Source: an uncultured Gammaproteobacteria bacterium
GTDB taxonomy: Bacteria > Cyanobacteriota > Vampirovibrionia > LMEP-6097
Direction: 5' to 3'
NCBI GenBank assembly: GCA_964551135.1
Contig: CAZKAT010000005.1
Location: 198,522 to 262,521 of the forward strand
Length of the DNA: 64,000 bases
The position numbers and the translations under genes are program-made. The notes beneath the pieces are model-generated. The model did not search any database, was not told the DNA's origin, and worked only from the letters and a program-made list of their open reading frames with translations. Shown here one piece after another: positions 1-33,327 of this stretch (within the stretch, counting starts at the first letter, position 1; every line of letters starts with the position of its first letter).

Positions 1-593
1 AATTCCCTAGCAAAAAATTCAAGACTATTAATAGATGTATAGAAAGTAATTGCTAAGCTAATTAAGAAAGATTGAAGGCGATTTGCAACAAAAAATTCTA
101 CTAATAAATTTAAACTCATTATACAAAGAAATACATCAAAACCAACTTGCATGGTTTGTGCTGTGACTGCATCTGCGTTGAATAGGGCTATAAATATGGT
201 ACCGATGAAATCAGTCCCATAATGATAATTTGACATAGTTATATCAAATGTCGAAGGAAATATTGGCGGATAAATATTATTCAAGGCAATACTTGCAGTA
301 AAGGGTATATGAAAATTATCAGGATTACCCCAAAGGCTATCACGTGCAGACATTAAATAAGCTATCAATAAGGCAAATATTAAAACAGCTAAATCCCACC
401 AATTAAACTTAGGTAATTGAACTTTATTTCTTAAGGTAAAGCAGCCGATTATCACCAAACCAATAGAGAGTTTTATTGCGAGGCAGGGGTTCTGAGTTAT
501 AAAAGAGAGTAAATGCGCCAAGAGTAGGGAGGCAGAGAAAATTAGAATAAAAAGTTTGGTTAAATAAGCACTCAAACTTAGAGAAGTTTTCAT
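1..593 (-). CDS. Polytopic membrane protein, N-terminal part only (the gene runs off the window edge). It belongs to the same paralog family as the 26221..28434 and 30103..32400 proteins.
   Basis: Reading the minus strand by hand from ATG 593..591 gives MKTSLSLSAYLTKLFILIFSASLLLAHLL..., with several hydrophobic helices. The loop motif NNIYPPIFPSTFDITMSNYHYGTDFIG matches NDYYPPRLL...FYHYGIDLVG and NNDYPPLLP...FYHYGIDLL in the two full-length paralogs. The ORF is absent from the supplied track because it is truncated by the window edge. Confidence 0.5.
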   Translation of the reverse strand, partial: MKTSLSLSAYLTKLFILIFSASLLLAHLLSFITQNPCLAIKLSIGLVIIGCFTLRNKVQLPKFNWWDLAVLIFALLIAYLMSARDSLWGNPDNFHIPFTASIALNNIYPPIFPSTFDITMSNYHYGTDFIGTIFIALFNADAVTAQTMQVGFDVFLCIMSLNLLVEFFVANRLQSFLISLAITFYTSINSLEFFARE

Positions 594-643
594 ATAATTA
601 TAATACCAGCAGCTGCAATATTTTACTGTTATAATAAGCGTCG

Positions 644-1456
644 ATGAAACAACCTTCAATACTAGTGTTCATACCAATGTATAACTGTGAGAAGCAGATA
701 GTAAGGGTACTGGCCAAGTTTGATGAAGAAACTCAAGCTCTTTTTTCTGAGATTTTAGCGGTTGATAATGGTAGTAAAGATAGAACTTTAGAAGCTACAG
801 AGCAAGCTTTTAAGAATTTAAAGCAAATCAAGACCACGCTGGTACAGAATGTAGATAATTATAGTCTTGGTGGTTCTCATAAAGTAGCTTTTAATTATGC
901 ACTTGCTAATAACTATGATTATGTTGTAGTTCTTCATGGGGATGATCAAGGTGATATCCATGATTTAATACCTTATATTAAGAATGGTGAATACCAAAAT
1001 TACGATTCTATCTTGGGTGCAAGATTTGCTAAAGGATCTAAATTAGTAGGTTATTCATTAATTCGAATCTTAGGTAATTGGGGACTTAATGCTTTCTGCT
1101 CAATAGCTACTGGCAAATGGGTTGCAGATATGGGATCTGGTTTAAATATGTATAAGACAAGCTATTTAAAAGATAGATTTTATCTCTATTTCCCTAATAC
1201 TTTAGCTTATAACGTTTATATGCTTTTTTATGGTATTCATACTAAATCAAAGTTCAAGTTTTTTCCTTTAACCTGGAGAGAAGAAGACCAAGTTAGTAAC
1301 GCTAAGATTTTTGATGTGGGATATAAGATTCTGAAATTGATTATGAAATATATTTTCAAACGTAAGGAATTATTCTCGCGTGAACCAAACCAATTCTCGG
1401 TGATTGATTATCAATCTAGGACTGTGTTTCAGAAAGAAGCTTTTGCAAAGACTTAA
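644..1456 (+). CDS. Family-2 glycosyltransferase, a DPM1/ArnC/GtrB-like polyprenol-phosphate sugar synthase type.
   Basis: Typical GT2 N-terminus (LVFIPMYNCEKQI), a DNGS (DxD-like) motif and HGDDQ. About 60% identical to the ORF at 20876..21685. The 3' end overlaps the SDR gene by 4 nt in a convergent arrangement. Confidence 0.8.
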   Translation: MKQPSILVFIPMYNCEKQIVRVLAKFDEETQALFSEILAVDNGSKDRTLEATEQAFKNLKQIKTTLVQNVDNYSLGGSHKVAFNYALANNYDYVVVLHGDDQGDIHDLIPYIKNGEYQNYDSILGARFAKGSKLVGYSLIRILGNWGLNAFCSIATGKWVADMGSGLNMYKTSYLKDRFYLYFPNTLAYNVYMLFYGIHTKSKFKFFPLTWREEDQVSNAKIFDVGYKILKLIMKYIFKRKELFSREPNQFSVIDYQSRTVFQKEAFAKT

Positions 1457-2130
1457 TTATGCCACTCTAAAGTCGGGAATAATTTAATAGTCTTGAATTC
1501 TATATTTGCTGGGCTGTTTACTATATAGCTTATTAGTTTGCTTATTTCTTGTGTAGGCATAGCTTCTGTTACATCTCCACATGGATATGGATTACTAGGA
1601 TTCCAAAGAGGTGTATTAATTCCGCCTGGATGAATACTAACTACTTTAATTCCTTTACTACGAAGTTCCTTGCCTAATACTCCGGCAAATCCAGTCAGTG
1701 CATACTTAGATGCGCAGTAGATGGACTGTTTCTCTAATTCTTCTAAGCCTGCAACTGAATTGATAAATATAATTCGACTATCTTTAGATAGTAAGTCGAT
1801 AGCATATTTGCAAACATAGAGAGCACCTTTGAGATTGGTATCAATAATGCTGTTAATAGTATCTATATCTGTGTCACAAAACTCTGCCATCGTAAAAGTA
1901 GCTGCATTATTTATTAGTAAGTCTATTGATTCATTTTTAAGTCCTGCAAACGCAGCTTGAACTGATTTGTGATCTTTAATATCAACGATCTTTTGTATAT
2001 AGTTCTTAGAGTCAATTGCAGCTGGCTTTCTTGATAAACCGATAACTCGCCAACCCTCATTTGTAAAATGACGAGCAAGTTCCAAACCCAATCCACTACT
2101 GCTTCCGGTAATGACTACTGTCTTAGGCAT
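1453..2130 (-). CDS. Short-chain dehydrogenase/reductase (SDR) family oxidoreductase.
   Basis: TGSSSGLGLEL Rossmann motif, NNAA motif and the YxxxK catalytic dyad (YCASK). I moved the start to the internal ATG at 2130 (MPKTVVITG) so the gene no longer overlaps the upstream cyclase gene. Confidence 0.85.
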   Translation of the reverse strand: MPKTVVITGSSSGLGLELARHFTNEGWRVIGLSRKPAAIDSKNYIQKIVDIKDHKSVQAAFAGLKNESIDLLINNAATFTMAEFCDTDIDTINSIIDTNLKGALYVCKYAIDLLSKDSRIIFINSVAGLEELEKQSIYCASKYALTGFAGVLGKELRSKGIKVVSIHPGGINTPLWNPSNPYPCGDVTEAMPTQEISKLISYIVNSPANIEFKTIKLFPTLEWHN

Positions 2131-3268
2131 TACACATCCTTTCGTATAATTCTGCTGCTGCTTTAATCTCTTCGACTCTAACATCGTTAAGTATTCTATA
2201 ATTGCCTATCGCTATTGGCACGGGTAAGTATTGATTATCATTTCTATGTTTGCAAGTATCAGCTAAGGCTTCCTGTAATAGATCAATATTGGTGAAGTCT
2301 TTATGGTAAGTTGGTAACCTTAGATTCTTGGCAGTTTTAAATATGCGTAATAAATCCTTGTCATTTAAATATTGACGATTATGTGCCAAGCAAGAGCTAA
2401 GCAAACAATCCATAACTACAGCTTCACCATGAAATATATGTGGAAGATTTCTCATTTCAATTAATGGACTAAATGAATGTCCAAAATCAACACAACGCTC
2501 TAACTTCTTCTCCCAAAGATTCGGAGCTAACTCATCTATCATGCCAGTAATAGCAAGGTTAATGACGCGTACTGGTACTGCACCAAACTGAAACTTCTCG
2601 TCTATCAATTGGTCATAGTTTACTTCTAGTAGTTCAAACAAAGTACTATCTTTAATAAGTGCCAGTTTGAATATCTCTGCAAGTCCGTTGACTATCTCTC
2701 TTTGTTCTTGAGTGTTGATGAATTTCTTATCGATTAATGCTGCAATAGGAGGATAATAACTACCTAAGCGGTTTCTTCTATCTAAGTGATTGATTCCAGT
2801 TTTAGAACCAACACTAGCATCTACTATCGCAAGTAAGGTTGTAGGTACTTTTACGTAAGGTATACCTCTTCTATAAATGCTGGCACAGAATCCCACTAGA
2901 TCCAGTAAAACACCGCCACCTATTGCAATTACGGGTTCTGCACGACGCAGTATGCCTGCTTCTTCAAAAAACTTTAAAACATGATCAGTATTTTCCCAAT
3001 TCTTGTCTTCTTCTTTTGCATCAATAACGCATATTTTCAATTCTGTTTTTAGTGTTGAGAAGTAATTTTTTATATCATCACCATAGAGTTTATAAACGGT
3101 TTTATCAATAACGATTATGCGTCTATTGGAGCTGCCATAATTAAGCAAGTCATGATTATTAGGATTAAAAACATCACTTGAGTATTTTATAGAAAATGAT
3201 ACTGGCAACTCTGCTTGAACAGACCATGCTCTCTTGTAATTATCGAAATTAATTAATATATTTTCCAT
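2123..3268 (-). CDS. Sugar-phosphate cyclase of the 3-dehydroquinate-synthase superfamily (DHQS / EEVS / DOIS-like).
   Basis: GGGVLLDLVGF nucleotide-binding loop, VPTTLLAIVDASVGSKTGIN, and the metal-ligand block VDFGHSF...HGEAVVMD, which follows the DHQS LNFGHT...HGEAVAIG pattern. The start codon shares one nucleotide with the upstream kinase stop (TAATG). Confidence 0.75.
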   Translation of the reverse strand: MENILINFDNYKRAWSVQAELPVSFSIKYSSDVFNPNNHDLLNYGSSNRRIIVIDKTVYKLYGDDIKNYFSTLKTELKICVIDAKEEDKNWENTDHVLKFFEEAGILRRAEPVIAIGGGVLLDLVGFCASIYRRGIPYVKVPTTLLAIVDASVGSKTGINHLDRRNRLGSYYPPIAALIDKKFINTQEQREIVNGLAEIFKLALIKDSTLFELLEVNYDQLIDEKFQFGAVPVRVINLAITGMIDELAPNLWEKKLERCVDFGHSFSPLIEMRNLPHIFHGEAVVMDCLLSSCLAHNRQYLNDKDLLRIFKTAKNLRLPTYHKDFTNIDLLQEALADTCKHRNDNQYLPVPIAIGNYRILNDVRVEEIKAAAELYERMCNA

Positions 3269-4233
3269 TAGTTATAAATTTTACTCAATAAATAGCAAGC
3301 GTGCACATAAAAAAACTTCGCATCATTAAGATTGCCTGCGTAACATTTGAAGGGTAACATTCTAATAAATTGAGTTGCTTCAAGTATATTCACCAATAGC
3401 ATTTCCTTATCATTTAATTCTTGTTTAAGTCTTCCTTCAAAACAAGAATTAAAACTATTAAAGGATGGAGGTATGCTTAAGTTATGTGATACAGTATTCC
3501 CTTGAACTTGCTTTTCATTATCATTCAAGAAACCATAATGACTACGACTGCATTGTAAGACTTGTGAATAATCAAGAAACTTAGAGTCAATAATGCTCTC
3601 TTCATATAAGTCAATAAAAACTATTCGATTCTCTTTCTCTATATAAAGAGTGTTTTCTAAGGTTGGATTACCATGAATAAATTGTTCTTCTGGAAGATTA
3701 ATATGACTAAAAAAAGTTTCTAGTTTATGGAAATGATTTTCTAAGTTAGGAACAGTTTGTCCATTATAAGAGTATATTTCATAGTTACAAAAATCTGAAA
3801 ATTCTTTTGATGCTTGTTTGGCATCTGCAAGTTTTTGACTAACCTCTTCCTTGAAATAAAGTGAGCAAGCTCCTTTGTTAGCAGCAAAAGTCATGGAGTG
3901 TAGTTCATTAAATGCAGACCAAAGTGCAGAGTTAATTTTTTCAATTTCATTTATTTCTAGATTCTTGTTTATAAAAAGATTCTTGATATCTACAGCATCA
4001 GGGAAGTATTCAATATCAAAATATGCTCTATCACCCTTGTAACCTACTTCTAATACTTTGGGAAACAGGTCAGGGAAGCTCTTTGCGTAACGCTGTAGTT
4101 TTTTTAATTGAGAATACCAGCGCACGTAACCGTATTCACGATCAGATTTGGTGCTAATTTCTTTGCGTATAAAACGTTGGTCCACCAAAAAGGTTGAACT
4201 CAAGGAGCCACCTTTTAATTGCACTATACTCAT
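3268..4233 (-). CDS. Protein with the kinase fold of the aminoglycoside phosphotransferase / choline kinase / AmgK family.
   Basis: Gly-rich loop LKGGSLSSTF. The Brenner-like catalytic loop reads IHGNPTLEN, with Asn where the canonical Asp sits. A FIDLYEE (DFG/DxE-like) segment follows. Its stop overlaps the cyclase start, and the upstream nucleotidyltransferase stop overlaps its start. Confidence 0.6.
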   Translation of the reverse strand: MSIVQLKGGSLSSTFLVDQRFIRKEISTKSDREYGYVRWYSQLKKLQRYAKSFPDLFPKVLEVGYKGDRAYFDIEYFPDAVDIKNLFINKNLEINEIEKINSALWSAFNELHSMTFAANKGACSLYFKEEVSQKLADAKQASKEFSDFCNYEIYSYNGQTVPNLENHFHKLETFFSHINLPEEQFIHGNPTLENTLYIEKENRIVFIDLYEESIIDSKFLDYSQVLQCSRSHYGFLNDNEKQVQGNTVSHNLSIPPSFNSFNSCFEGRLKQELNDKEMLLVNILEATQFIRMLPFKCYAGNLNDAKFFYVHACYLLSKIYN

Positions 4234-4964
4234 AAGTTAAGTCTTTTCTTAGCCAGTTCAATTCCATACTCTTGCGGGCTACCGAGAACTATTGTTTCAG
4301 GGAAATGTTCTAGTTCATTTACTGCAATAGTTTTACCATTGCTAAGCATATGAGACATTACGTTTGAAATATATAACTCAGTATCTTTAGCTATGCTGTC
4401 AGAAAAAATATTGTAATTCTCTAAATATGAATTGGCACTTTGAAAACAATACAAGCCAGAACTAGCGAAAGGAGAAATAGCTTTTTTCTCTGCTATCTCT
4501 ACTACCTTACCATCAGAGGATTTGATATAACAATATTTAGGTGAGTTAGCTATGAACACGTCTATAAAAGCATCGTGTTTTTTCAAGGCTTCTTCAATTT
4601 TATTGAAATCGCGATTAATTAATATAGTGTCAGCGTTGTGAATAAAAAGAGGTGCCTTATGATCAGCAACTAATTGAGCACCAATTGCAGCTGTTTCAGC
4701 TTGACCTGTAGTATCCCCAATATAATATATACTTTCTTCATTTAAGCCTAGTGGTTCGATGTTTTCTAATAATTTATTCTTAAAATAGGAATCTCTTTTA
4801 TTAGCAAGTAAAATTACCTGACCAAAATCATAACCTTTCATCAGGTCATTTAATAGTTCTTGAATTATAGTAGTTTCACCCCATGGCAATAAATACTTAG
4901 GAATGTCGAAACCGACATCATGAAATCTTGTATTTAAGCCAGCCATGCATATTATTAAAGCCAT
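4230..4964 (-). CDS. Sugar-phosphate or alcohol-phosphate nucleotidyltransferase (LicC / MurU / IspD-like NTP-transferase fold).
   Basis: N-terminal MAGLNTRF aligns to the (A)AGxGTRL nucleotidyltransferase signature with a Gly-to-Asn change. Size and layout match small nucleotidyltransferases. It is translationally coupled to the kinase gene. Confidence 0.6.
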   Translation of the reverse strand: MALIICMAGLNTRFHDVGFDIPKYLLPWGETTIIQELLNDLMKGYDFGQVILLANKRDSYFKNKLLENIEPLGLNEESIYYIGDTTGQAETAAIGAQLVADHKAPLFIHNADTILINRDFNKIEEALKKHDAFIDVFIANSPKYCYIKSSDGKVVEIAEKKAISPFASSGLYCFQSANSYLENYNIFSDSIAKDTELYISNVMSHMLSNGKTIAVNELEHFPETIVLGSPQEYGIELAKKRLNL

Positions 4965-5269
4965 TAGTAAAATCCTATATAAATCTACAGGCTTAATATT
5001 AGCAGATTAGGGTGGATGAAGGTAAACTTTGGTGTTTTTGGATTGACAACTTAGTAAAGATTCTTTGATCTGGTTATAAAGCAAATACATATATTACTCC
5101 TAATAGCAATGTAGGCATGAAGTAAAGTATTTTTGAAAAATCTAAACCTATCTTGGTTGATATAAACATTAAGAGCTTAGGCTATGAGAGTAAGTTATAT
5201 GGTGATGTCAAAAAAGGCGAGTTAATAGTGATAAGTGTAGTTATAGAGAAGTATAATTATTATAATACG

Positions 5270-5926
5270 ATGAAAAGACTTTTACTTTTTTTATTGATTA
5301 TCATCTCCTGTAGAACTACTTTTGCTAAAAGTTTTTTGGCTAATTTGAATTTTAAAAATATTGATAATGCAACTACACTTGTTACAAATTTAAGTCAAAA
5401 CCCTTCTGGTCAGAATCTGAATGGGTTTGGTATCAGTTTATTTGCAGACATGGCTACAGAAGATTTGCTTGTCCAATTTATTTTAAGTGAGGATGATTTT
5501 AATAATCTTAGTCCTGGAGATACTATTCCTCTTATCTATTTATCGACAACACCAGAACTGGGAATCATTCCAATTGAAGTTGGGCTTGTAAATACCTCAT
5601 TTAACATTACACAAAGAGCTGATATGAAAAAAATAAAAAAAGAAGGTGTTGTAAAAACTGTGACTCAATATATTCAATATGAACCAAGCCCATTAAATGA
5701 AGAAGAATTTGGCAGTTTTACAATAATTCAAAATAATGAAAATATTCTTGAAGCCAATTTTGTAATTAATTATGGAAAATTTATAGCTAGTTATTATAAT
5801 GTAATCATTCAATATGATAGAGGTATTACTTCACAATATATCGTAAGGTCTGATAAAACGAAAAATATTCTTCTAAGAAAAGATCTTAAGATTTCTGGTA
5901 CTTGTGTTGTTGATAAAACGGAATGA
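5270..5926 (+). CDS. Hypothetical secreted protein or lipoprotein.
   Basis: I moved the start to the internal ATG at 5270. The N-terminus is then MKRLLLFLLIIISCRTTFA, a signal-peptide-like stretch with a possible lipobox (IISC). No recognisable domain. Confidence 0.4.
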   Translation: MKRLLLFLLIIISCRTTFAKSFLANLNFKNIDNATTLVTNLSQNPSGQNLNGFGISLFADMATEDLLVQFILSEDDFNNLSPGDTIPLIYLSTTPELGIIPIEVGLVNTSFNITQRADMKKIKKEGVVKTVTQYIQYEPSPLNEEEFGSFTIIQNNENILEANFVINYGKFIASYYNVIIQYDRGITSQYIVRSDKTKNILLRKDLKISGTCVVDKTE

Positions 5927-5954
5927 ATCCAAGTTTAGTTAACTTAAAACCTAG

Positions 5955-6641
5955 TTAATCTATCCAACCTTGTTCTTTTGCATAAGCCTTAAGTTTATCG
6001 AAATTAGACATGGTTTCTTTAATATAATTCAACTCAAAAATTCTTGAACCTGGAGGTATGTCTTTAATAGCGAGATCAAAAAAATCTAAGAATTCTGTTA
6101 CAAGTTCTTTTTCATCTACGCAATAATAAGCCACACAAGTCCTACCCTCTATAACAAGATCATCATGATCATTATTGTTCTTTGTCATTGCTTCTATCAA
6201 AAAATTAATATCCTGAATAGTTTCTATTCTATATGTTCCATCATCATTATAGGGCGCTCCTAATTTCTCTTGACCGTAAAATCCAAATGAAGCATAGAAA
6301 TTAGCTTGATACGGATTTCTTATAACTGTTAATTTAAGTCCATAGGCTTCCTCATAATACTCGGAAAAAACAAACTTACTTAGGTCATCTTGGTCATTAT
6401 TTATAAAAAACTGTATTAAACACATTATGCAAAATATTGCACAAGAAACATAATAACCATGACCTACCATAGTTAAAGCTTTGCCGTCGTATTCACGTTC
6501 CCATGCGAATTGGCCATAATTAGGTATGTTAGAATCACAGGGTTTTTCTCTATTAGTAATTTGAAAGAAGGGTTCCCTATCGTAATTTTTAAAATAACCA
6601 TTAACTACATCGATAGGTTTTTTACGAGTTATATTAAACAT
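5955..6641 (-). CDS. Hypothetical protein co-transcribed directly downstream of the giant gene. It may be a partner or immunity-like protein for the giant protein's C-terminal domain.
   Basis: Its start codon (6641..6639) is separated from the giant gene's TAA stop (6645..6643) by one nucleotide. No recognisable motif. It has one hydrophobic segment (YYVSCAIFCIMCLIQFFI). Confidence 0.5.
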   Translation of the reverse strand: MFNITRKKPIDVVNGYFKNYDREPFFQITNREKPCDSNIPNYGQFAWEREYDGKALTMVGHGYYVSCAIFCIMCLIQFFINNDQDDLSKFVFSEYYEEAYGLKLTVIRNPYQANFYASFGFYGQEKLGAPYNDDGTYRIETIQDINFLIEAMTKNNNDHDDLVIEGRTCVAYYCVDEKELVTEFLDFFDLAIKDIPPGSRIFELNYIKETMSNFDKLKAYAKEQGWID

Positions 6642-6642
6642 T

Positions 6643-9600
6643 TTAAATACCTGGATTATCCTTATATAAAGGGAAAGTTGTAATTATAGAATTCTCTTGT
6701 TTTACATTTGTCGACCTTGTTGGAACTTGTATGCGATTAGAATATAATTGGTCTGAAGGATATTTATTAAAGGACTTAGACTGTCCGATGTTTCTATTAT
6801 ATTTTTTCTGAAAAACAGTATCTAGCTTATTGCTTCCTGCAAATCCTCTATTAGAACTTGTTGAATTTATAATTAGATCCTCAATAAGCTTGACAATATT
6901 CTCAGAACTATAAAATTTAGTGTCGATTTTATCGCTGCCAGCTAATATTCTAGGGATTATTGTTCTCCAGCCATGATTTTCCAGGACATGCTGTAATCCA
7001 CTATAAGTTAACCAATACACCTTATAATTTCTCCATTCCTCTCCAACAATAGATTGTTTAGCATCCCTTGACTCAAAAATTCTAAAAGTTCCTTTTTCTC
7101 TTACACCATGATTTGAATATACAATGTGATCTGCTAAAGAATTACAGAAACCTTTTGCTATAGTAGTTGGTGAACCTCCTTGTTGATTGGCATAATTAGA
7201 ACTAACTGTCACAGTTTCGGGTAAAACTCTTCTCAGATCATCACCGATTGATCCTAATTCATTTGGATATAATGGATAGTTACCATAGCTTGTGCTAACT
7301 CCACTAGCTCTCATCTCAGCATAAGTAAGATTCGCCTGAAAAGCAAAATCAACTATTTCATTCAATGCGGTCGTACTTGAAACAGGTAAAGGACCAAGAA
7401 GTTTTAATCTATTTTCAATTTCATTTGTTATACAAATTGGTATAAAATTACTTTTTTTAGTAAGTTTGACTATCGGTACTCGTTTTATAATCTCGTCCGA
7501 GTCTACATCTGGGAATAAATAAGCCCAATCTTCGTCCATAAGTAGACCCGTATTAGGGATTTCTATACCGTTAGGAATAATAGCAGGCAAGGTTGTTTTG
7601 TAGGAAGTAAGTGATTTTTTGCTTCCATTATCATCAACCGTGAACTCATATTTACCTGATTCTTCAAGCTGTGCAAGATTAATTAGACCACCTTGTATCC
7701 TATTACATGAACCATTGTATTCATCTTCACAAATTACAATCTGACCTTTGTTTGTGGAACTAATAATTTCAAGGCTATATTTCTGTCCTTGTTCTAATAT
7801 AGTGGCTATATTACCAGTCCCGTCTTTATATTTAAGTTCAATATATTTTGTTCGAGTTCCTGCTCCTACTAGACTCATGAAAGGAATCACCTTGCGTTCT
7901 TCATATATTTCGCTAGCACTAGAACTAAGATTTACCTTTTCTGTTTTATTTTCAAGAACAACTTTATATAAGAAGTATCCAGCTGCTACCGTTACACCAG
8001 CAAACACAAATAATGGCACCTCAATTGGAGCTAATATAAAGCTAGCTCCTGCCAATGCAACTCCACCACTAACTGCTACTAAAGCTTGACTGTCATTTGA
8101 AGTATCATCATTTAATAGTAGTTTTTGATCAACCCCAGCCGTTTGCTTACTTGTCAAGATCGCTTTTTTACTTACAGCAGCTTTTTCGCCTGGAGTAGTA
8201 ATATCTAGTTCCGGGTCACCTTCTTGATAAGTAGTTATTTCATAACTTAATTCTCTCGCAAAACCGTTTTCTAGATTAATGAGTGACTGAAACTTTGCTT
8301 CATTTCCTTCTTCTCCAAATTCTAGGAAATCATCGTACTTAACTTTTAGAACAGGATCATCAATAATAAAGAACTCCGCAGTCTGACTTAATCTCTGATT
8401 ATCAAAGTATGCTTCTAGAATATATTCTTTAATATCTTCGATCTGCTTAAATGGAACAATGGTAGAAATATTATAAGTATACTCATCAGTGTTAATAGTT
8501 GGATTTACAGAGCTTACTGTTACTAGGTTTAATGCTTCTTTATTACTAGCTTTATCTATCAGTTTGAAACTGATTTTATTAGCTTCTTCATCTTTAATGC
8601 CTGTAAATGTAATTGTTCTATTGAAAGTATAATCTTCACCAGCTTTAGCATAGATTACATTTGGTTCACCACCATTGTTACCGGAGCCTTGATCACCCAG
8701 ATCATTTATTCCATTGATACCGAAAGTTATGATAGGTTCTGTATCACCCACCAACATAAATCTACGTGAGACTGGTAGATTCCTTACTTCTCTTCCTGGC
8801 TGTGGTGTATGTATTAATTGAGCATTTAATATATATTCTGATCCTGCCTTGCCAGATGTAATATCTTTTAAATTTACTTCTAAGTATTTTCCGTCTAAAT
8901 TTGAAATCCGATTTGATATATAAATTCCAAGTGGATCTATAAGATTATCAGTATTGGTGCTTAGATCATCTATATATAGCTCTACTCCATAAATGGATTC
9001 TGGATCAGGCTCTGTAGTAATGATGACTTTGTAATCCTTGGCTGCTGGAACAGGGTTTGAAATATTTGCTAATAATGCATTATTGAAAATGATATCCCCA
9101 TCAGCAATATTTTTTAAATAAGTTACACCGCAAACTACTGCAGTATTAGTATCAGAATCGGAACTAATAACAGAAGGGTCTGCATTGACTTTAGATACAA
9201 TAAAATTAAAAGTAACTTTATTTGTATTTTCTGGTATATCTAATCTGCTAAGTAAGAGATATCCTTCTCTTACATTCTTGATCGTATAATTAGGAACATC
9301 TAATTCTATACTCTGTCCATCAATTGTTTCAAAATCTGCATATGAATATGCTTGACCATGATTAAAGGTATTGTTGGTAGCTAAATCATCTTGTTTAACC
9401 CATAATCTAGCTCCTTTTCTACTTGCAGATTCAAATTTTACTTTTAGATTTCTGATTTCATTAATATCTGAACTGATATGAGAATGTCTGCGTTTGCTAA
9501 GTGAATCGTTAGTTTCATTCGGAAGTTCAATCCAGCACCTGTTTTGAAAGTCTGCTTTAATTTGTACTTTACGAGTTCGATTCGGATCATTTTCACTTAC

Positions 9601-12600
9601 GAAATAATATTCTTCTACTGAACTAGGATCATCATCAAAGATTTTAGCTAAATATGCATCCTTACTGCGTAATAATTTCATTGATATAGAATCTGCATCA
9701 TTGAATTTGTCTTTGAATTCTTGCGGTGCATTCTTAGTTAGATTTACCTTCATGAAGTTTCTAACCTTAGTATTTACATTAGATAAATAATCCCGACCAA
9801 TGATCTCGCCAGTAACAATTAAAGGAAAACCAATTGCTCTATTAGTTTCATCGAACAATTGGATTTCCATTTCCAGTGGATCAACTGATTTATGTAAAAT
9901 ATTAGAAAAATAAGTCTCTAGCAATAAATCTTGTTTATTATTTGTTTGCTTAAGAGTAACTTTTGGATATTTAGCAACTGTTTGTGATTCTTCGAATTGT
10001 GGATAGTCAATAAAATTAACTTTCTTGTTTAGATAAGTGAGATCATCAGAAGAATAAGAAGATAGGTAATTTTTGTCATAAGAACTATCGCTATAACCAC
10101 CTATTAATTCAATTTGCAGGTTTTTATGGGTCATAGCTAGTACCGCAAACGGCATACCAATTTTTTGTAATTTATCTACTTCGGTTAAGCTTTTATTTTT
10201 TATAAGAGCATTGTTACCTTTATCAATAAAGAAATTTGCCAACATTGAGAAATGCTTTGAATTATTACTTAGCTCTTGAATATCTATAGTTTCTGCTTGA
10301 GGCGCAGCATCAAAGACTAAGCTTGGAATATTATTGTTGTCCTCGTATATACCTGCTGGAATATCTATCCTTCCATGCTCACCTTTCCGGTAGCTATAAG
10401 TAATGCTGCCATATTCAGGGTTATATCCTGCTGCAAATCTAAAATCAATAAACTCAGTTATTTCTTCATCGAATTCATAATCACCAAATAAATGTATATC
10501 ATTTATATTTTGATAAGTTATTCTTGGACTTGAAAGATCCAAATTTGCTGGTTCAAAAATAATTTTGTCTGCTGATATATCATAGTTTTTTAGTTGTACT
10601 GCTTTGGGAGCAATTCGGTATCTCTCAATATCGTAACTGTTGTATGTATCACTTTCTCTATAAGCGACGTTATCAAAAGTAATAGGACCAGTATAAAATC
10701 CTTTTGCAGCAAAATAAGATGTCATATCCATTTTCAACTCTAAATCAGCTGATTCTCTGAAAATAGTACCTCCATTGTCTGACCCTAAAGAAGTATATTT
10801 TGTTTCCCAGTATGTTTCGGGGGATGTATCTAAACTGCCTGACGATAGAAGTGATGATCTACTGATTTCAAATCTCATTTCATCTAAACTAACTAAACCT
10901 ATTTTATTTCCCAGTCGATCATATTTTGTAGTGGTGAGATACTTTAGATATTTTGATTCTGCTCCAGCTTCCTCTTTATCGGATGCATCTCTTCTGTGGT
11001 AAAGAGTCAATTCAAACTTTTTAGGTGAATGCGAAGTGTGGTGTTTATCATCACTGATTTCTTGAAAATTTCCAATAAACATAAGTGGAAGTGGGGTTTT
11101 ATTTACTTCTAGTAGATAGTTAGTCGATGATAATAAATCATTTTCATTTGTTGAATATGAATTAGAGAATAAATTAATTCCTAAAGAATCTCCAGGCTTT
11201 ACATAAATTCCAGTGGAAGAAGGATTATAAACATTCAAGTGTAAATTATAGAGATACTTAGCTTGTGTTCCAGCCGTTGATTGTGGAATTAAGGAATAAG
11301 TATTTTGATTATTAATGATTAGTTGTCTATTAGCAACATCGTTTGAAATATAATAAAATTTAAAATTATTAATACTTGAGATTGGAAGATAAGATTGTAC
11401 TGTTGCATCAATTGTAATGCTTGTAAGAAGGCTACCATTACTCAATGTTGTATTGGGGATTGTAACAATACTATTAACATCTATTGTATTATCGCCAGGA
11501 GTAATCCAAATCTCGATATCGCCTTCAATTGCTGTATCAGTAAACTGACCCAATGCGACATTTCCAGTAATTGAATCAAACTCAACGTCATTATGGAATC
11601 CATAGTAACCAAGAGGCCATTGATCACTTATTGTCTCAGAAGAAAGATCAAAGAATTTCAGTTGACCTTTTTTTGAAGAATTTGAGCTATTGAAATTGTT
11701 CCAGCTAATGTAATGGGTGGTTGGAGAACGTCCTACAATGTTGTATCCAAAATTATATGTATAATAGTCTTCTGTTTCATATAAAGACCATGGATAAGTG
11801 AGTGATTTATGAATAATTGACCTGGAGTCACGTTGAGATACTAGATTTGAATTAAGAGCCTTGTAAAGTATTGTTGGTTGATTCATTTTAAAGTTTGCTT
11901 CTGTTGAACTAACTTCACCACTGTTATCAGAATTGACATCACATACTGCTAGATCAAAATTAAGAACAAATGGATAACCTTGTTTTGCTTCAAAATGTCC
12001 ACTAGTATTTGTAATTAGTCCTGAAGTCGGTGCATAAAATGGAAGGACTTGTAAACTTTCAATATCGTAGGCATTATTCGGGAAGGGTTTAGAGATTAAT
12101 GAAATATTATTGTATAGATAGTATAGGCATTCTTTTTGACCCGGATAATAACATCTTAAGTCATCCTCATCAAAAGTTTGTCCTTTAGGGCAGAAGAACT
12201 CGAATTTTCTCTCCCCTTTAATTAGATTTAATGAGTTGAATTTTGAAACGTTAGATTCATTATTAGATGATGAAATAAAATAAGCATTACTATAATATTG
12301 ATTACCTGCTTTATCTATAGTTCCAACTTCTACAAAATTAACATCTGGCTCTTGTAAGATATCTTTTTCCAATAATTCTATTGCAAACTCAGCAAGTCCA
12401 GGATCATCAGAGTCAATAATAAGATTTCCTTCCTTATATTCATTGCTATTCAATCTATATATAACCTTAGCTATATTTTCATCTTGTACGGTACCTGAAA
12501 CGATGATCTTAGAGTGTTTGTAAATAGAATGATTTACTGGTGTTTCTATTTCTAAGAATGGAACAGTGGAGTCAAGTATAACTTTGTGAGGTCCAATATT

Positions 12601-15600
12601 AATTACTTTACCATTGGGCAAAGTAGCTTTATACGTAAGAGTATTTTCACCTTCATTAAGCTTTGCTATTAATATTTTTTCTTCTGAATTTGCTTCTGTA
12701 ACATTCGGATTTATATTTTTATATGATTGAATTACTGCGTCTGAATTATAGACAATGAATTCTTTAATGCGTTTAGAGATTTTTACTGGAATTTCATATT
12801 GATATTGATTTATATAAGTTGTTTTATTGAGTATTGGTGTTAACCCACTGAAATCAATAGAGCTAGCTGATTTATTGGTTTTGCTCACCCCAAACTCTAT
12901 GCTCTTCGAACCCTCCTGCTCTAAACTGTCATAAACCAACACATCTAAAATATAATTACCAGGTTGTAGGTATAAATCATTGAAAGTTTCTGTGAATTTC
13001 GTTGGTACTTGATCAGTAAAGGTTTTGCTGAATACCACATCATTACTACCTTTGGCGATAACTCTAATCTCTAATCTTTGTAAGGAAACCTTAGTGTCTA
13101 CTTCACCTGCGATATTGATTATCTCCTCATCATTAATTTGAATATCACTTGCTTGTTTATTGATAGTCAGACTTGTAATTAAAGGTGGAGGTGTATCCTT
13201 AATTTCCAGTGGTTTAAGAGTGAAGACTATTGGTTTAGCTTCATCTGTTGTTTTCACCCAGAACTTAATCTGGAATATTCCTAAATTATTATATGTATGT
13301 TTCTTGTCAGTTACTGTATTCTTCAGGAAGTCAGCAGTAGGATTGTTTCCTGAATAAGTCCAGCTGGTGCCATCACCAAAATCCCAGCCAAAGGATTCTA
13401 TAGTGGTCTTATAGATTGCTTTACTCTTGACTTTTAGATCTGCAATGAAGCCTGGATTAGGAATATCTTTCGGAGCTAAATTGGCAATAATCGGTGTGAA
13501 GGCTACATGGGAAGGCAGCTTCGCTATAGTTACTGTGCCGGCAGATACTGTCCAAGTCTCAGAATGCCCGTCTGGGAAGGTTGCATTAACTTCTAGACGT
13601 GGATCATATTCCCCTTGAACGTAGATATGTTTACGATTAGTTAAAGCTACTAGATCAATATATTGATTAATCAGTACTGGTCCGAGGTCAATTGTTCCTG
13701 TCTCTTGAATGCCATCTCCGTATATAAACTTATAATTCAAAGAACTAGGTTTATTGTTCTTAGCAGTAATAATTTTCACCTTGGCTTTGAAACTTATTTC
13801 TTTATTGCCATTAAGCTCAGGCTCAAATATTTTATCAGCGTTAATGACGCTTAATGAAGCTACCAAGTTTTGTCCAGGTCTAATGATTTGTACTGTATCA
13901 GATTGAGCGGTATCAGAATTATTGAAGAAATCTTTTACTGTTAACCCTGCTCTATAGATCCCTGGTTCTTTTCTTGGACCTATATAATAAGTGCTGGCAT
14001 TAGGGTCATAATTGGATGCGATATTAATGAAATCATCTGTTGGATTAGCTTCTAGGCTCTTATATTCTGTAATCCATGAATATGAACCAATACCATCGTT
14101 GACTTGAGAAGCAAAGGTGGCTCTATTTGGATCATAACTATATTGACCAAGGAAGCTCGCCTTATCTGTTGGATTATCACTTGGTTCAAGTATTAATTTA
14201 TTAATATTCTCAGTTACTACTTTGGCTTTAGGGAGAGCATCATCGATTATATGAATCGCAGTTGAAACTTCTCCAACATAAGTTAAATAACTAATTGGAT
14301 CATAATAACGAGCTTTAATTAATAAATTATAGTCTCCTATGTAATCTCTTAATACAGGGAATTTGATTTGCTCTGTTCCTACTTTAATCCATGGCAGATC
14401 TATAGTCTTGGTTGATAAAGTTTCATTTTCAGCATTAAGTAGTTTAACTTCATATTCCCAATTAGCTTTGATTGTTGGATTTGGAGCGTTGCTCTGTAAT
14501 TGAATTATGAAGTCTTGATTATTAGCTTGCTCAATAAATTCAGTAGGAGATTGGATGCTTAACGTCACATTGTGATCTTCATTGAAGCAAACACCATGTT
14601 TAATTGGTAGTGCATTATTCTTTAGATAATCAAAAGTAGTTTGATTAATTGATGCATATTTACCACTGCCAAATGCTTGATTATAAGGTTTAACCAAATT
14701 ATTTTTTATATAATCTTCCATCTGTTCATCAGATTTACTTCCATTAGTTAAATAGAAATAAGTGCAATGAGTACCTGGTTTGAAATTAGTTTCTTTGAAA
14801 ATAATTTCAGCAGCGCCTTCGCTATTAGAATTAGCTGTGTCTGATTGCAGAATAATATACTTATCCTTGTATATTCCTGCGGTTGATTTTCTGTTGATAT
14901 GAACAGCTTGAAGCTTGGTGTTTGAAGTGGTATTCATCGATATACCAACACTCTTTCTTGTTTTAGTACTGCCACCAAATAAATTTAATTTGAGATTGTT
15001 AATGAATGGTTTGCTTGGAGCTGTATAAATAGTTACAGCTTTAATTTGTACGCCATCGTCTGAAGGACCAATAACTTTAATTTTTAGATTGAATGCACCA
15101 GAACTTACATTAAAAGGCTCAGATACGATTTCATAGAATTTATTGCCAGCAGCTGGATCTTTGGAGAGCACTAATGCATCGTTAACCCAGACTCGAATCC
15201 CGTTAAATCTATTGCCATTGAGATGTAGCATTAACCTGGCTTGATTAGCAGTATAAGTCTGTAACTTAAGTTTTTTAGATATTATTAGAGCATCATTAGA
15301 GAATACTGTAGGATAACCATCTTTAAAATAATGATAAGCATTGCCAAAGCCAGTTGATTCATCAAAGAAGAAATAATCTGTATTGAAATCTATATTCAAG
15401 TCTATTTTTTTGGAATTACCATCAAGTACATCAAATGTTTTTTCAGTTGGATTAAATAGATTGTTTGTATAAACTTTATCGACTATATAGAATTTATTGT
15501 CAGCTGCTTTTTGACTAACTCTGATAGTTATATTTGTTCCTTTGAAATCTTCACTTCTGAGTTTAGCTAGAATTTTATTGCTATCAATAAACGTGCTTGG

Positions 15601-18600
15601 TCTATCTATGAAATCACCACTGTCAATTTTAATCCTTACATTATGTTCATTCTTACAGAAATTCGAACCTATGATTTCTATTAAAGCTCCTCCCTTTTCT
15701 TTGGTATGTGCAATATTACCCATAATGAAGTTTATGCTTGTAACTTTGAGACCTGTTCCGTAACTTGTTCTACAGTCACAACTGCCACCACTGCAAGCGC
15801 CTGCTACAGGTAAACTTAAATCACGTATCGGAGTACTATTGTTATCGTTTTTATGATCCGTGATTGAATCAAAATCGCTTATAGGGTCATCTGTAGACTG
15901 TTGCTTTAAACTTGCTTTCAGGTCATTTGGAATATTTTCATCGCCATTCTCTTGATCTATTGGTGTTTTGTAGACTGGAACTGAGTTGCTGATTGCACTT
16001 GCAAAATCACCAACTATAATAGCTTTGCCATAAGCATTCGCTACTTGACCTTTAGCATCAACTACAGTCAATTTGATGTAATAAACGCCTTTACTAGTAT
16101 AGGTATGCGTTGTACTAATACTATTAGAATCGCTACCATCTCCAAAATCCCAATGATAACTTTGTATCTCATAATTTTTAGGATCATAACTTCCATCAGC
16201 ACTCACTGAAACTAAATTAGAGCCAGTATCATGTGTGATTTGTAATTTAGGAATTGGGATTTGATTTGGTAAAACTGTTAAAGTTTCACTCAATACTGGC
16301 TTGTCATCTAATTGATGAACTAATTGATATTGACCAGCTTCTGTGAAGCTTTGTGGAGCATCCAATATACTTGAATTAACTTCGCCATAGGCACTATTAA
16401 AATCATTAGATTTATCTATCAGAACAGTCTTGCCGCTAAGATCTTTTTCATAACCGCGATATATCCATTGATATTGTTCGTTATTAATAGGTCCAATAGT
16501 TACTCCTTTAACAGAACTTGAATCAGTTTCCTCTATTCCAATTAAATTATCAAAACTAAGTGAGCCGACAACAGGTATTTTGGTAGTTACTACTACTGAT
16601 TCTAAGTTTTTAGTACTGAGAATTTTCTTTTCGGCATCATCCTTTCTATAAACACTAAGTACAGGTGAATAAACACCAGGCTTACTATAATTATGAGTCA
16701 GTTCAACTCCATTCGCTGTAAAACCATCTCCCCAATCCCAATTGTAATCCAAGAATTCCGTTCCAGCGTCAAATGGAGTTGCATTGCGGTAATAAATAGA
16801 TGAAGCTCCAGAGAAGCTCATTATCGAACTGCCAAGTACTAAATCATCTACTCTGTTTTTTAACTCAGCATTCAGAATTGGTGGTGGTTCTAGAATGATT
16901 AGTTGAGAACTATAATTACTAATGAGTCCTTTAATGTCAGTAACTTTTAGCACAATATCATAGCTGCCAAATTTATTGAATTTATAAGTAAATTTCGGAC
17001 TAGTTGCCTGAATCAATTGAATTGCTTGATTAGAATTTGCTACTGGGTTATGGTAATTAATAGTCCAGTAATAGTTTCCTATATTGCCGTTAGGATCAGA
17101 GCTAAATAGAGCATCTAATTCAATATTACACGAAAATGTTCCATCAATCTTATATTCAAGGGCTACTTGTCCATTCTCACTAACTCTGCAATCAAAGACA
17201 TTTTTTACAAATTTAGCAACTGGTGGATAGTTTTTCTCTTCCACTACTATATCTTGAAGATTTATTTGAGAGCTTAAGCCTCTAGCATCAGTAACTTTTA
17301 ACCATACTTTGTAAGTACCTGGATCGGTAAAAGTATGACTAATTGTTTTGCTTGATGCTGTGATTGCATTATTGAAGCCCCATTCGTAAGTCAAAGTACC
17401 ATTTTCTGGATCGGAGGACTCGGATGCATCAAAATTTATACTAAGAGGTATTTCACCACTATATTTATCGGCTTTAGCTTTAGCGATGGGAGCTTTATTG
17501 GCTTCTGCAACATTTATGGTTTGTGTATAAGTAGAAGCTTTAAATGATTGTTCGTAAATTTCTAAAGTTACGGTATGTGGTCCGGCTTGATTGAGGTAGA
17601 ATTTGCTGTTTTGATAAATTTGCTCGCGAGGTTCTTCTATTGCCGAATCAATGATAAATCGATATGTTAGATTCTGTCCATTTTGGAAACCACTATTATC
17701 AGCTAGTAATGAAATAAAATTTTGAGCTTCTATGTATTCATTTAATATAGAGAAAGAATTTCCTCTGCAAGCTTTACTGGTACAAGTAACAAATCTCTCT
17801 TCTTCACAGCTATTGACTTGCAATTGTTCGGCAAGGATTCCTCCACAGTTTGCTTGACAAACTCCTTGATTCACCCAAGTATTCCTTGATTCAAGACAAA
17901 CTACACTTTTACTGATAATAATAGGACTTAATTGATACTTTTCACTTAGTCTTCCGTCACTAGTGCGTACTATCAGTGAAGGAATGAAAGTGCCTGGAGA
18001 TCTATATATGTGTGGAACAAGTTTATTAATATTAGTTTCTGCAATTCCATCTCCATAGTCCCAAAGATAAATTAGATTCTCATGAGAATTATTGCGTGGA
18101 TCAAAACTTCCTGAAGCATTGAAATTTATAGTAGCAATATTATTGTCTCTATCATCCACACGAGTATCAATGAGACCTTGAGCTATAGGCTTATCACCTT
18201 GGACTTGAGTAATAATAATAGGGTCCAAAAATCTAAAAACTTTATCAGTTAAATCTGGAGAGTAAGCTATTAATAGTGGCGTATACCTCCCAGCTTTTTT
18301 ATATGCATGGACTATAGATTGTGGAAATTCTGCAAATGGAGCAGTGAAGCTATAATAGTCTTTATAAAAATTATCACCATAAAAAAGAAAAACAGTAAAT
18401 TTTCTCTTGCTTAATGGCATATATGGATTGTCACTGCTAATAGAGTAAGTTATTTTAGAATCCAGTAGGGGAGCCTGGTTGATCCTAGAGAGTAGATTAA
18501 CTTTAAGGTCGCTAGCTTTAACAAACTCATCATAAGGAATGATAGTTTCTTTACTTATTATAATAGGATTGAGAGTAAACTTTGTACTTGTTCTACCATC

Positions 18601-20875: not shown

Positions 20876-21685
20876 TTACATCGTTGTAGACTGAGAGAAA
20901 ACTACTTTAGATTGATAATCAATTTTAGACCACTCATTTTCAGTGCAAGAGAAAAGTTGCTTACGCAGGAAAAGATATTCTAGCAGTAAATAAAGTATTC
21001 TAAATCCCTGCTGGAAAACTTTGGCATTACTGATTTGATCCTCTTCCTTCCAGACTAAAGGAAAAAATTTAAAACTAGATTTTACATGACAACCATAGAA
21101 CAGCATAAACACATTGAAAGTAAGATTATTGGGGAAGTATAAATAAAATTTACTCTTAAGATAGTTAGTACTATATATGTTTAAGCCAGCACCCATATCT
21201 GTAATCCAGTAACCAGTTATCATTGAGCATAATAAATTAAGTCCTATATTGCCCCAGGCTCTTATTAAAGGATAATGGATTAGTTTAGAATTTTTATGAA
21301 ATCTTGATCCTAAGAATGAATCATATGCCTGGTATTCACCACTAGTTAAATGAGGCACAAAATCAGCTACTTCACCTTGATCATCACCATGAAGCACTGC
21401 TACATAATCGTAGCCTTGTATTAATGCGTAATTAAAAGCTACTTTATGAGAACCACCTAAATTATAATTGTCACAATTCTGTAGAAGTGTAGTTTTAACA
21501 TATTTAAGTTTCTCAAGTCCCTGCTGAGCTGCACTTAAACTATTGTCCTTACTACCATTGTCAATGATTACAATTTCAGTAAAAAGCTTTTGTATTTCCT
21601 CACTAAATTTACTAAGAACTCTTGGTATCTGCTTTTCGCAGTTATACATTGGGATAAACAACATGAGCTTAGTTTTACTAGGCAT
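20876..21685 (-). CDS. Family-2 glycosyltransferase (DPM1/ArnC-like). It is a paralog of the ORF at 644..1456 in inverted orientation.
   Basis: LMLFIPMYNCEKQIPRVLSKF, IIDNGSKD and HGDDQG. Collinear with the 644..1456 product at roughly 60% identity. Confidence 0.8.
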   Translation of the reverse strand: MPSKTKLMLFIPMYNCEKQIPRVLSKFSEEIQKLFTEIVIIDNGSKDNSLSAAQQGLEKLKYVKTTLLQNCDNYNLGGSHKVAFNYALIQGYDYVAVLHGDDQGEVADFVPHLTSGEYQAYDSFLGSRFHKNSKLIHYPLIRAWGNIGLNLLCSMITGYWITDMGAGLNIYSTNYLKSKFYLYFPNNLTFNVFMLFYGCHVKSSFKFFPLVWKEEDQISNAKVFQQGFRILYLLLEYLFLRKQLFSCTENEWSKIDYQSKVVFSQSTTM

Positions 21686-24316: not shown

Positions 24317-24318
24317 TT

Positions 24319-33271: not shown

Positions 33272-33327
33272 TTTCTAGTTTAGTTTATCATTTTTGTGAA
33301 GTAATAAGTGCCATCTTCTCCAAAATC

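Follow-up and report, generated by a model that had tools for sequence, protein, structure and literature searches.

A conserved four-gene cassette predicted to activate a C7-cyclitol, found in a Melainabacteria glycosylation island, in uncultured phages and in marine bacteria

Introduction

C7-cyclitols are known from actinomycete drugs (acarbose and validamycin), from toxins of plant symbionts and from the sunscreen gadusol, and we know of none described as a component of a cell envelope or of a virion. The kinase ValC/AcbM of the validamycin and acarbose pathways is of the ROK/glucokinase type. Conversion of a cyclitol into a nucleoside diphosphate (NDP) cyclitol by a cyclitol 1-kinase and a nucleotidyltransferase (NT) is established for GDP-valienol, with AcbU and either AcbR or VldB (PMC9200736). 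Outside the actinomycetes, the ebo cluster of cyanobacteria, Bacteroidetes and the plastids of eustigmatophytes is a widespread group of genes around a sugar-phosphate cyclase resembling EEVS, the synthase of 2-epi-5-epi-valiolone (PMC5133447). A 2026 review of cyclitols assigns them roles in secondary metabolism and signalling only (PMC12904256). Here we describe a cassette of four genes, encoding an NT, a kinase-fold protein, a cyclase and a short-chain dehydrogenase/reductase (SDR), which is located in a stretch of 64,000 nucleotides from an uncultured bacterium (assembly GCA_964551135.1, contig CAZKAT010000005.1, positions 198,522 to 262,521 of the forward strand), referred to below as the window.

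Judged from its sequence, the cassette is somewhat more probably than otherwise a self-contained and horizontally mobile unit, which would convert sedoheptulose 7-phosphate to a nucleotide-activated C7-cyclitol (a carbasugar) feeding glycoconjugates. The logic of NDP-cyclitol formation is already known; new are the set of enzymes, a kinase clade devoid of the catalytic Asp, the setting in glycan loci and phage genomes, and the ecological abundance. Literature searches within one collection of papers, combining EEVS or valiolone with phage, viral, O-antigen or glycosyltransferase/NT terms returned nothing on the cassette, and a search on aroB as a phage auxiliary gene returned nothing relevant.

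Results

Layout of the cassette

The four genes are on the minus strand and are composed of the NT (4230 to 4964, 244 aa, a single-domain member of the RmlA/GlmU-N superfamily), which is the first gene, the kinase-fold protein (3268 to 4233, 321 aa, with the fold of aminoglycoside phosphotransferases (APH) and choline kinases (ChoK)), the cyclase (2123 to 3268, 381 aa, a sedoheptulose-7-phosphate cyclase of the EEVS (ValA) type) and a classical SDR (1453 to 2130, 225 aa, with the motifs TGSSSGLG and YCASK). The longest open reading frame (ORF) of the SDR begins at 2184, and an internal ATG at 2130 gives the 225-aa form used by homologues. Read from the sequence, the NT/kinase junction is ATGA (4-nt overlap), the kinase/cyclase junction TAATG (1 nt) and the cyclase/SDR junction ATGCCTAA (8 nt). 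For comparison 42 related loci, numbered with the prefix L, were fetched; the 8-nt overlap is kept in the called genes of L001, L002, L005, L037/L038 and L041. On the plus strand a GT-A glycosyltransferase of family 2 (GT2a, 644 to 1456, 270 aa, PF00535) converges on the SDR, and the two stop codons share 4 nt.

Pfam and NCBIfam recovered the domains NTP_transferase, the N- and C-terminal parts of DHQ_synthase, adh_short and Glycos_transf_2. An earlier sequence-only reading of this stretch had described four coupled minus-strand genes with overlaps of 1, 4 and 8 nt, which the ORF list and the junction letters bear out, and its four gene assignments are upheld by Pfam and NCBIfam for the NT, the cyclase and the SDR and by a fold search for the kinase. 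A consensus scan gave 33 promoter-like sites against 33.2 expected and is uninformative, and intrinsic-terminator-like sites numbered 0 in window positions 1 to 6700 (2.8 expected). In the whole 64-kb window there are no tRNA genes and no Rfam families at the gathering threshold.

The cyclase is of the EEVS type

The cyclase has the two-domain fold of the 3-dehydroquinate synthase (DHQS) superfamily (PF01761, E 1.7e-35; PF24621, E 4e-20), and the metal block noted earlier as FGHS...HGEAV is present, as VDFGHSFSPLIEMRNLPHIFHGEAVVMD. Its score against the aroB equivalog TIGR01357 is 213.7 bits and does not reach the cut-off of 305. Amongst chains in the PDB the best match is ValA (4p53, 324 bits, E 8.8e-96), followed by desmethyl-4-deoxygadusol synthase (DDGS; 5tpr, 187.5 bits), the best DHQS (139.4 bits) and 2-deoxy-scyllo-inosose synthase (79.7 bits); identity is 46% to ValA versus 30% to DDGS. 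At the position of the DHQS motif NxGHxxGH the cyclase reads DFGHSFSP, so that the DHQS-specific Asn and His, presumably Asn268 and His275 in the numbering of A. nidulans DHQS, are replaced by Asp and Pro.

The segments VDFGHS and CKHRN of the cyclase align with VDFGHS and VKHRD of ValA, and DDGS has IAYGHT and LTRD there. Both residues of the EEVS fingerprint, an Asp and a His, are thus found in the cyclase, and DDGS carries Ala and Thr at these sites. We take the two residues to be D281 and H360 of ValA, numbers that fit a PDB chain shifted by a tag of 6 residues. According to one paper, itself citing Kean 2014, two fingerprint sites separate EEVS from DDGS (PMC4426668). In a neighbour-joining tree all cassette cyclases form one clade, with ValA adjacent and DDGS outside. 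Bit scores, the missed aroB cut-off, the fingerprint and the tree agree with the earlier placement of the protein away from AroB, and an ordinary aroB is ruled out, as far as sequence can tell, by the score of 213.7 against 305 bits and by the non-DHQS residues. On its sequence the protein classifies as an EEVS-type sedoheptulose-7-phosphate cyclase, within which EEVS is not separable here from EVS, the synthase of 2-epi-valiolone.

Homologues are abundant: of 8000 candidates that were scored, at least 3436 have E <=1e-30. Identity is 68-95% for the top 120, most of which annotation pipelines call '3-dehydroquinate synthase'.

The kinase-fold protein

Sequence searches with the kinase-fold protein gave no match in Pfam, NCBIfam or the PDB (phmmer), and hhalign against an approximate NPTII sequence aligned one helical stretch only. 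A fold search found a bilobal kinase fold, with neighbours that include a ChoK-family protein, LicA, fructosamine-3-kinase and the sugar-1-kinases 5-methylthioribose (MTR) kinase, NahK and maltokinase. The sequence-only reading had named the protein an APH-like kinase and not a P-loop shikimate kinase; fold and exclusion both stand, and activity as a kinase is not secure, given an invariant HGN with no catalytic Asp.

Ligand roles were assigned from motif order and predicted secondary structure. Among 35 homologues the Gly-rich loop LKGGSLSST, K24, N194 and D208 are invariant, and the mean column identity of the family is 62%. A HMMER search of 1.84 billion cluster representatives gave 624 clusters at E <=0.001, the best 150 of which were aligned to the profile; 121 of these cover the catalytic loop. 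K24, N194 and D208 are invariant in all representatives covering them. The loop is HGNxTLEN, together with IDxYEE, in 96 of the 121, and canonical HGDLTLEN with IDPNxE or IDxxG in the other 25, which are the most distant ones. Since these distant representatives carry HGD there, N189 of our protein truly sits at the position of the catalytic Asp, and the 96/25 split indicates that the change from Asp to Asn is specific to one clade and goes along with YEE, where an acidic pair newly follows the Mg-binding Asp.

The sister clade with HGD includes fusions of an IspD/MobA-like NT, a HAD domain and the kinase, of about 680-720 aa (P0388, P0414, P0391, P0416), which suggests that the wider kinase family works in NDP-activation pathways. 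One member is joined to an LPG_synthase_TM domain, and architectures of this type appear to be uncharacterised. Within the HGN clade, one metagenomic protein (P0305, 728 aa) has the kinase joined directly to the cyclase. In another (P0281, 480 aa) the kinase continues, by fusion or by read-through, into a homing endonuclease of the GIY-YIG/NUMOD3 type; the domain is typical of phage genomes, and the arrangement suggests homing-endonuclease activity within the cassette in some phages.

The NT and the SDR

PF00483 is the one Pfam domain of the NT (E 7.5e-13), its best PDB match is the NDP-sugar pyrophosphorylase 4evw (E 1.6e-17), and in PHROGs it matches phrog_3980 (E 7e-35). GlgC-type chains are not among its PDB matches. 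By its matches the protein is nearer to the NTs for sugar 1-phosphates (PF00483, RmlA, GlmU-N) than to IspD or MobA. The SDR (PF00106, E 1.4e-38) has ketoreductases and alcohol dehydrogenases as top PDB matches, and the sequence GLSRKP after strand beta2 suggests, by the SDR classification rules, that NADPH is its cofactor.

Conservation and carriers

The order NT-kinase-cyclase-SDR is found in 40 of the 42 loci, that is in 35 of 35 complete ones and in 5 ended by a contig edge. Identity of the cyclase across the 35 complete loci is 45-95%, and the recurrence of this arrangement is far beyond chance. The carriers comprise relatives within the Melainabacteria and copies of this very region (L001, L006, L039), 26 IMG/VR viral contigs, from genomes up to 162-172 kb, other metagenomic contigs of phage character, and one marine bacterial chromosome (L037/L038). 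The phage nature of several loci is evident from their genes: a DnaB-like helicase (phrog_19, E 6e-124) and a DNA methyltransferase beside glycan genes in the 162-kb IMG/VR genome L023, a tailspike-type protein with Peptidase_G2 in L034, ClpP, a collagen/Peptidase_S74 fibre protein and DNA polymerase III alpha in L035, and dense very small ORFs with a PAAR protein in L041. By tblastn the cyclase is absent from the cultured phages of INPHARED, where the only matches were AroB-like, less than 60% identical and for the most part in records with contamination. Phage carriers are thus known from metagenomes only. PHROGs v4 has no family for either the cyclase or the kinase.

In the marine locus L037/L038, which has Rrf2 and NifU as neighbours, joined by infA in L038, the cassette is part of a large nucleotide-sugar locus with epimerases/dehydratases, two or three more NTs, DegT and, in the longer L037, a GHMP kinase. 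One epimerase gene past the cassette lies a split transketolase-like pair (E1_dh/DXP_synthase_N plus Transket_pyr/Transketolase_C; 8815-10798 in L037 and 9640-11623 in L038), which might be a source of sedoheptulose 7-phosphate or serve to make a branched sugar. Extra genes of the viral loci encode a GT-A-like transferase, epimerases, methyltransferases, DegT, a 2-oxoglutarate (2OG) oxygenase and radical-SAM enzymes, and phage-locus neighbours of no assigned family gave in Pfam weak hints only (Nucleotid_trans, DUF7796). A few genes downstream of the cassette, L002 (14336-16801) and L023 (16262-18400) have a protein of 712-821 aa with a cytidylyltransferase-like N-terminus (phrog_3041) and a domain resembling Zeta_toxin/AAA_33 kinases.

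No partner gene is common to all loci. The cassette appears to behave, by analogy, like rmlABCD, as a supply module plugged into variable glycan loci. It is no peculiarity of the present island but a widespread mobile module that is common in uncultured phages.

The glycosylation island of the window

GT2a (PF00535, E 1e-12) has PDB matches that include the dolichol-phosphate mannose synthase PfDPMS (5mlz) and GtrB (5ekp), and in PHROGs it matches phrog_841, 'GtrB-like O-antigen conversion'. Its top five NCBIfam families are AglJ, PpgS, Dol-P-hexose transferase, PgfS and ArnC, at 26-35 bits against cut-offs of 325-529. No transmembrane (TM) helices are predicted; PpgS and human DPM1 are likewise devoid of a TM helix. 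The GT2a arrangement is kept in L001, L006 and L039.

Four GT-C proteins accompany it. The PMT-family GT-C glycosyltransferase (28436 to 30073, minus strand, 545 aa) has PF02366 at E 6e-8 and 32.9 bits, above the cut-off of 22.7. The u765 protein (30103 to 32400, plus strand, 765 aa) is by its fold a GT-C glycosyltransferase of a rare family with 13 detectable homologues, as the fold test found a polytopic N-terminal GT-C module, an acidic motif in the first external loop and a soluble C-terminal domain. The u737 protein (26221 to 28434, minus strand, 737 aa, 13 predicted hydrophobic segments), probably a GT-C enzyme by paralogy, shares 26% identity with u765 along 777 aa (E 5e-56 to 2e-59, depending on the direction of the search). 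At the left edge, divergent from GT2a, lie the first 197 codons of u705 (1 to 592, minus strand), a polytopic membrane protein of 705 aa which is complete on L039/L040 and there followed by citrate synthase. This putative GT-C enzyme has 9 predicted hydrophobic segments and is 30% identical to both u765 (E 3e-94) and u737 (E 2e-80). None of u705, u737 and u765 has a Pfam match even at E 5.

In the close relative L001 the order of genes is methyltransferase, u765, PMT, NT, kinase, cyclase, SDR and, convergent, GT2a. PMT (3789-5438) and NT (5441-6175) are on the same strand there, with the PMT stop 2 nt ahead of the NT start, which suggests one operon. In the window the two genes are separated by about 23.4 kb, with no such insert between them in L001. 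This stretch carries a 4220-aa PKD-repeat adhesin, a PKD/lectin protein, GT2b, a GatZ-like protein, an NT-APH fusion and u737. The probable giant adhesin (6643-19305, minus strand) begins at a TTG, contains numerous repeats of the PKD type and lies, together with two small ORFs (5153-5926 and 5955-6641), between the cassette and the remaining glycosylation genes. GT2b (20876 to 21685, minus strand, 269 aa, PF00535) is 62.8% identical to GT2a over 261 aa (blastp) and is found beside a putative second sugar-activation system on the plus strand (22266 to 26237), composed of a GatZ/KbaZ-like protein (22266-23489), a 276-aa protein (23486-24316) and the NT-APH fusion (24663-26237), whose loop is canonical HGDFHFEN. 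In the unrelated contigs L042 (4222-8311) and L043 (576-2691) homologues of the GatZ-like protein and of the NT-APH fusion lie directly upstream of the cassette (tblastn against L042: NT-APH 27% over 505 aa, E 7e-52; GatZ 32%, E 1e-43), which indicates that the two activation systems travel together.

The GT-C genes are flanked by two adjacent class I methyltransferases dependent on S-adenosylmethionine (SAM) (32408-34224, minus strand, 287 and 298 aa), kept in L001, which may methylate the glycan or the cyclitol, and a further methyltransferase-domain protein is encoded at 59728-61107 on the plus strand. No flippase was identified. With GT2a, GT2b, PMT and the GT-C genes nearby, the setting is indeed a glycosylation island and no secondary-metabolite cluster, as the sequence-only reading had it. 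Its proposal of a polyprenol-phosphate type GT2 stood in part: the nearest matches, the four GT-C neighbours and the PMT abutting the NT in L001 are in favour, and the link is seen in this lineage only.

A copy of the cyclase with 93% identity is found in a Lake Mendota metagenome-assembled genome (MAG) labelled Candidatus Caenarcanales (Melainabacteria, class Vampirovibriophyceae), and a scan of genome contigs for the cyclase gave this one close relative and one distant DHQS-like gene. An identical copy of the kinase-fold protein is found on a contig of 262,794 bp. The G+C content of the window is about 33% throughout, ordinary chromosomal genes are present (asparagine synthase, cysD/cysN, sulfite reductase), and citrate synthase is just past its left edge. 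Uniform G+C and ordinary chromosomal genes identify the window as bacterial chromosome and not as prophage.

Discussion

In the pathway we propose, the cyclase would form 2-epi-5-epi-valiolone or its 5-epimer, the type of enzyme following from homology and the stereochemistry being presumed, and the ketocyclitol would leave unphosphorylated. The NADPH-type SDR would then reduce the C1 ring ketone to an alcohol, the APH-fold protein would phosphorylate this new alcohol with ATP, most likely at position 1 by comparison with NahK, AmgK and MTR kinase, and the RmlA-like NT would combine cyclitol phosphate and NTP to an NDP-cyclitol. In the Melainabacteria the recipients would be the GtrB/DPM1/PpgS-like GT2 and the GT-C enzymes, which implies an intermediate linked to a lipid phosphate and its transfer, outside the cytoplasm, to an acceptor on the surface; phages and marine bacteria would have other transferases and tailoring enzymes in place of GT2/GT-C. 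The parts of this scheme differ in strength. Formation of a phosphorylated or NDP-activated C7-cyclitol by the cassette is fairly probable. That the cyclitol ends in a glycoconjugate falls a little short of an even chance, and passage to it through a polyprenyl-phosphate carrier is unlikely. The scheme in full, an NDP-activated C7 carbasugar built into surface or virion glycoconjugates and handled in Melainabacteria by a polyprenyl-phosphate carrier and GT-C enzymes, remains a tentative and rather doubtful proposal.

Several observations weigh against it. The catalytic loop of the kinase-fold protein is H187-G-N189-P-T-L-E-N194, and all 35 homologues have Asn at the Asp position of the HxDxxxxN (Brenner) motif. 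The kinase profile matches in the PDB only JAK2 JH2 and MELK, the best being the JAK2 pseudokinase through its loop 'IHGN..KNIL', and the fold matches include Cph001-D189N, in which the equivalent change from Asp to Asn was made to inactivate a related enzyme. Two phage loci (L035, L036) have kinase-cyclase-SDR without an adjoining NT. The linkage to GT2a is confined to closely related genomes (83-95% identity), and the GT2a scores are far under every equivalog cut-off. To our knowledge there is no precedent for the displacement of NDP or polyprenyl phosphate from a non-anomeric carbon by a GT-A or GT-C enzyme, which is chemically demanding. Having neither a 2-epimerase nor a dehydratase, the cassette probably leads to a saturated carbasugar, and the known pseudoglycosyltransferases VldE and AcbS act on allylic GDP-valienol (PMC9200736). 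This discrepancy between product and donor makes transfer of a cyclitol phosphate a serious alternative.

In that alternative the same activated cyclitol would be moved as cyclitol phosphate, in the style of CDP-choline with LicD, of CDP-ribitol/CDP-glycerol with TarL/TagF or of CDP-inositol, to give a phosphodiester on a glycan or lipid, with GT2a acting in another step. Neither the window nor the scanned loci, however, showed a domain of the LicD, TagF, CDP-alcohol phosphotransferase or stealth kind, and the NT resembles the sugar-1-phosphate NTs more than IspD/MobA, so that we consider it improbable, serious as it is on chemical grounds. A comparably low probability is given to a small and soluble product, for example a compatible solute, a signal, an ultraviolet screen or a pseudo-sugar that inhibits glycosidases, for which NDP activation would serve small-molecule coupling only, as it does in validamycin and acarbose, and the glycan neighbours would be coincidental. 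In its favour, every characterised EEVS pathway leads to gadusol or to a secondary metabolite (PMC12904256; PMC4426668), the acceptors to which GDP-valienol is coupled are small molecules (PMC9200736), and the aminotransferases, radical-SAM enzymes, 2OG oxygenase and methyltransferases of the phage loci would suit a tailoring pathway. Against it, no GT-B pseudoglycosyltransferase, ROK kinase or HAD phosphatase was found beside the cassette, a nucleotide-sugar or glycosylation neighbourhood recurs in three unrelated settings, and in L001 a PMT-type GT-C gene, in the same orientation as the NT, lies 2 nt upstream of it.

The chance that the kinase-fold protein is not a kinase at all, and acts as a pseudokinase scaffold, in nucleotidylation, in phosphorylation of an acidic enol or of a phosphate, or in a phosphorylation-driven elimination, is smaller again; the product would then be no simple NDP-cyclitol. 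N189 is present in all 96 close representatives covering the loop and the sister clade retains HGD, the change is coupled to an invariant YEE that newly follows the Mg-binding Asp, the JAK2 JH2 loop is what the family profile picks out, and the second system of the island has a canonical HGD kinase. Yet with the Gly-rich loop, K24, N194 and D208 invariant, binding of nucleotide and Mg looks intact, and these invariant ligands together with the high conservation of the family (62% mean column identity) argue for catalysis in spite of the Asn at the position of the base. Moreover the upstream NT needs a phosphate ester, whereas the product of the cyclase would have lost its phosphate in a DHQS-type mechanism. 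Least probable by far is a shikimate aroB/aroK pair or a LicA/LicC phosphocholine system beside a DHQS paralogue. It would agree with the pipeline label of the cyclase and with the domain types of kinase and NT, which are those of LicA/LicC; it conflicts with the missed aroB cut-off (213.7 vs 305 bits), with Asp and Pro at the DHQS Asn/His sites, with a kinase that is no P-loop enzyme and has no Choline_kinase match in Pfam, and with its constant position next to the cyclase, to which it is fused in P0305. Neither of the two outcomes which the sequence-only reading had said would overturn it was found: the cyclase is no AroB by cut-off and fingerprint, and kinase and NT are tied to the cyclase and not free-standing LicA/LicC proteins.

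The presence of the cassette in thousands of metagenomic proteins from freshwater and marine sources, in glycan loci and in phage genomes suggests that carbasugars may be common and overlooked on aquatic microbial surfaces. Since glycosidases cannot cleave them, carbasugars could have effects on how phages recognise their hosts, on resistance to grazing and on the turnover of glycans. If the proposed pathway is true, it would give the first glycoconjugate that contains a carbasugar, the first cyclitol pathway carried by phages and the first case of pseudo-glycosyl transfer by GT-A/GT-C enzymes, and it would include an APH-fold kinase clade working without the canonical Asp. For enzymology it offers a minimal NDP-carbasugar route, of use in glyco-engineering and inhibitor synthesis, a kinase clade with an exchanged catalytic base, possible GT-A/GT-C pseudoglycosyltransferases and a GT-C family outside Pfam.

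Comparison with known systems

The route to GDP-D-glycero-D-manno-heptose of capsules and S-layers (GmhA, HddA, GmhB, HddC) also starts from sedoheptulose 7-phosphate and uses a kinase and a short NT to activate a C7 unit. It differs from the cassette in having an isomerase instead of a cyclase and a GHMP kinase instead of an APH-fold one, and its product is a true heptose and not a carbocycle. The partners of the cyclase in the ebo cluster are a UbiA prenyltransferase, a TatD hydrolase, a xylose-isomerase-like protein and a phosphodiesterase, with no trio of kinase, NT and SDR, and these partner genes are not present in the cassette. The Burkholderia K and S EEVS clusters have ROK and HAD partners, again unlike the cassette.

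As in the cassette, a kinase of the APH/ChoK fold and a short NT activate an alcohol or sugar for surface structures in LicA/LicC, in AmgK/MurU, which is the pair for activation of N-acetylmuramic acid, and in NahK with a GlmU-type NT. In Pfam and PDB searches no sequence similarity to LicA or NahK was detectable, however, and the cassette differs in making its own substrate, through cyclase and reductase, and in the replacement of Asp by Asn. The lipid-phosphate relays ArnC/ArnT, GtrB/GtrC, DPM1/PMT and PpgS/Rv3779 combine a small GT2 with a GT-C enzyme, and the island has the same combination, with the PMT gene apparently co-transcribed with the cassette in L001. In the island the donor would be a carbasugar nucleotide instead of the nucleotide of a true sugar, and a family without a Pfam match accounts for three of the four GT-C proteins.

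The closest parallel is the GDP-valienol branch of validamycin and acarbose biosynthesis (ValA/AcbC, AcbN, AcbU, ValB/VldB/AcbR), to whose cyclase that of the cassette is homologous (46% to ValA), and which follows the same logic of cyclising, reducing the ketone, phosphorylating and nucleotidylating (PMC9200736). The likeness to ValA/ValC/ValB drawn in the sequence-only reading stands for this logic and for the cyclase and fails for the other two proteins, as ValC is of another type than the cassette kinase, which has no ROK or glucokinase match in Pfam or NCBIfam, and ValB/AcbR are GlgC-like. The latter have been likened to glucose-1-phosphate adenylyltransferases (PMC9200736), whereas the NT of the cassette has 244 aa and shares just the NTP_transferase superfamily with them. 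With its four genes the cassette has no 7-kinase, 2-epimerase, dehydratase or 7-phosphatase, so that valienol is an unlikely product, and it has no GT-B pseudoglycosyltransferase; its kinase is of the APH fold and Asp-less. The validamycin and acarbose genes lie in secondary-metabolite clusters of actinomycetes, whereas the cassette lies in glycan loci and in the genomes of phages.

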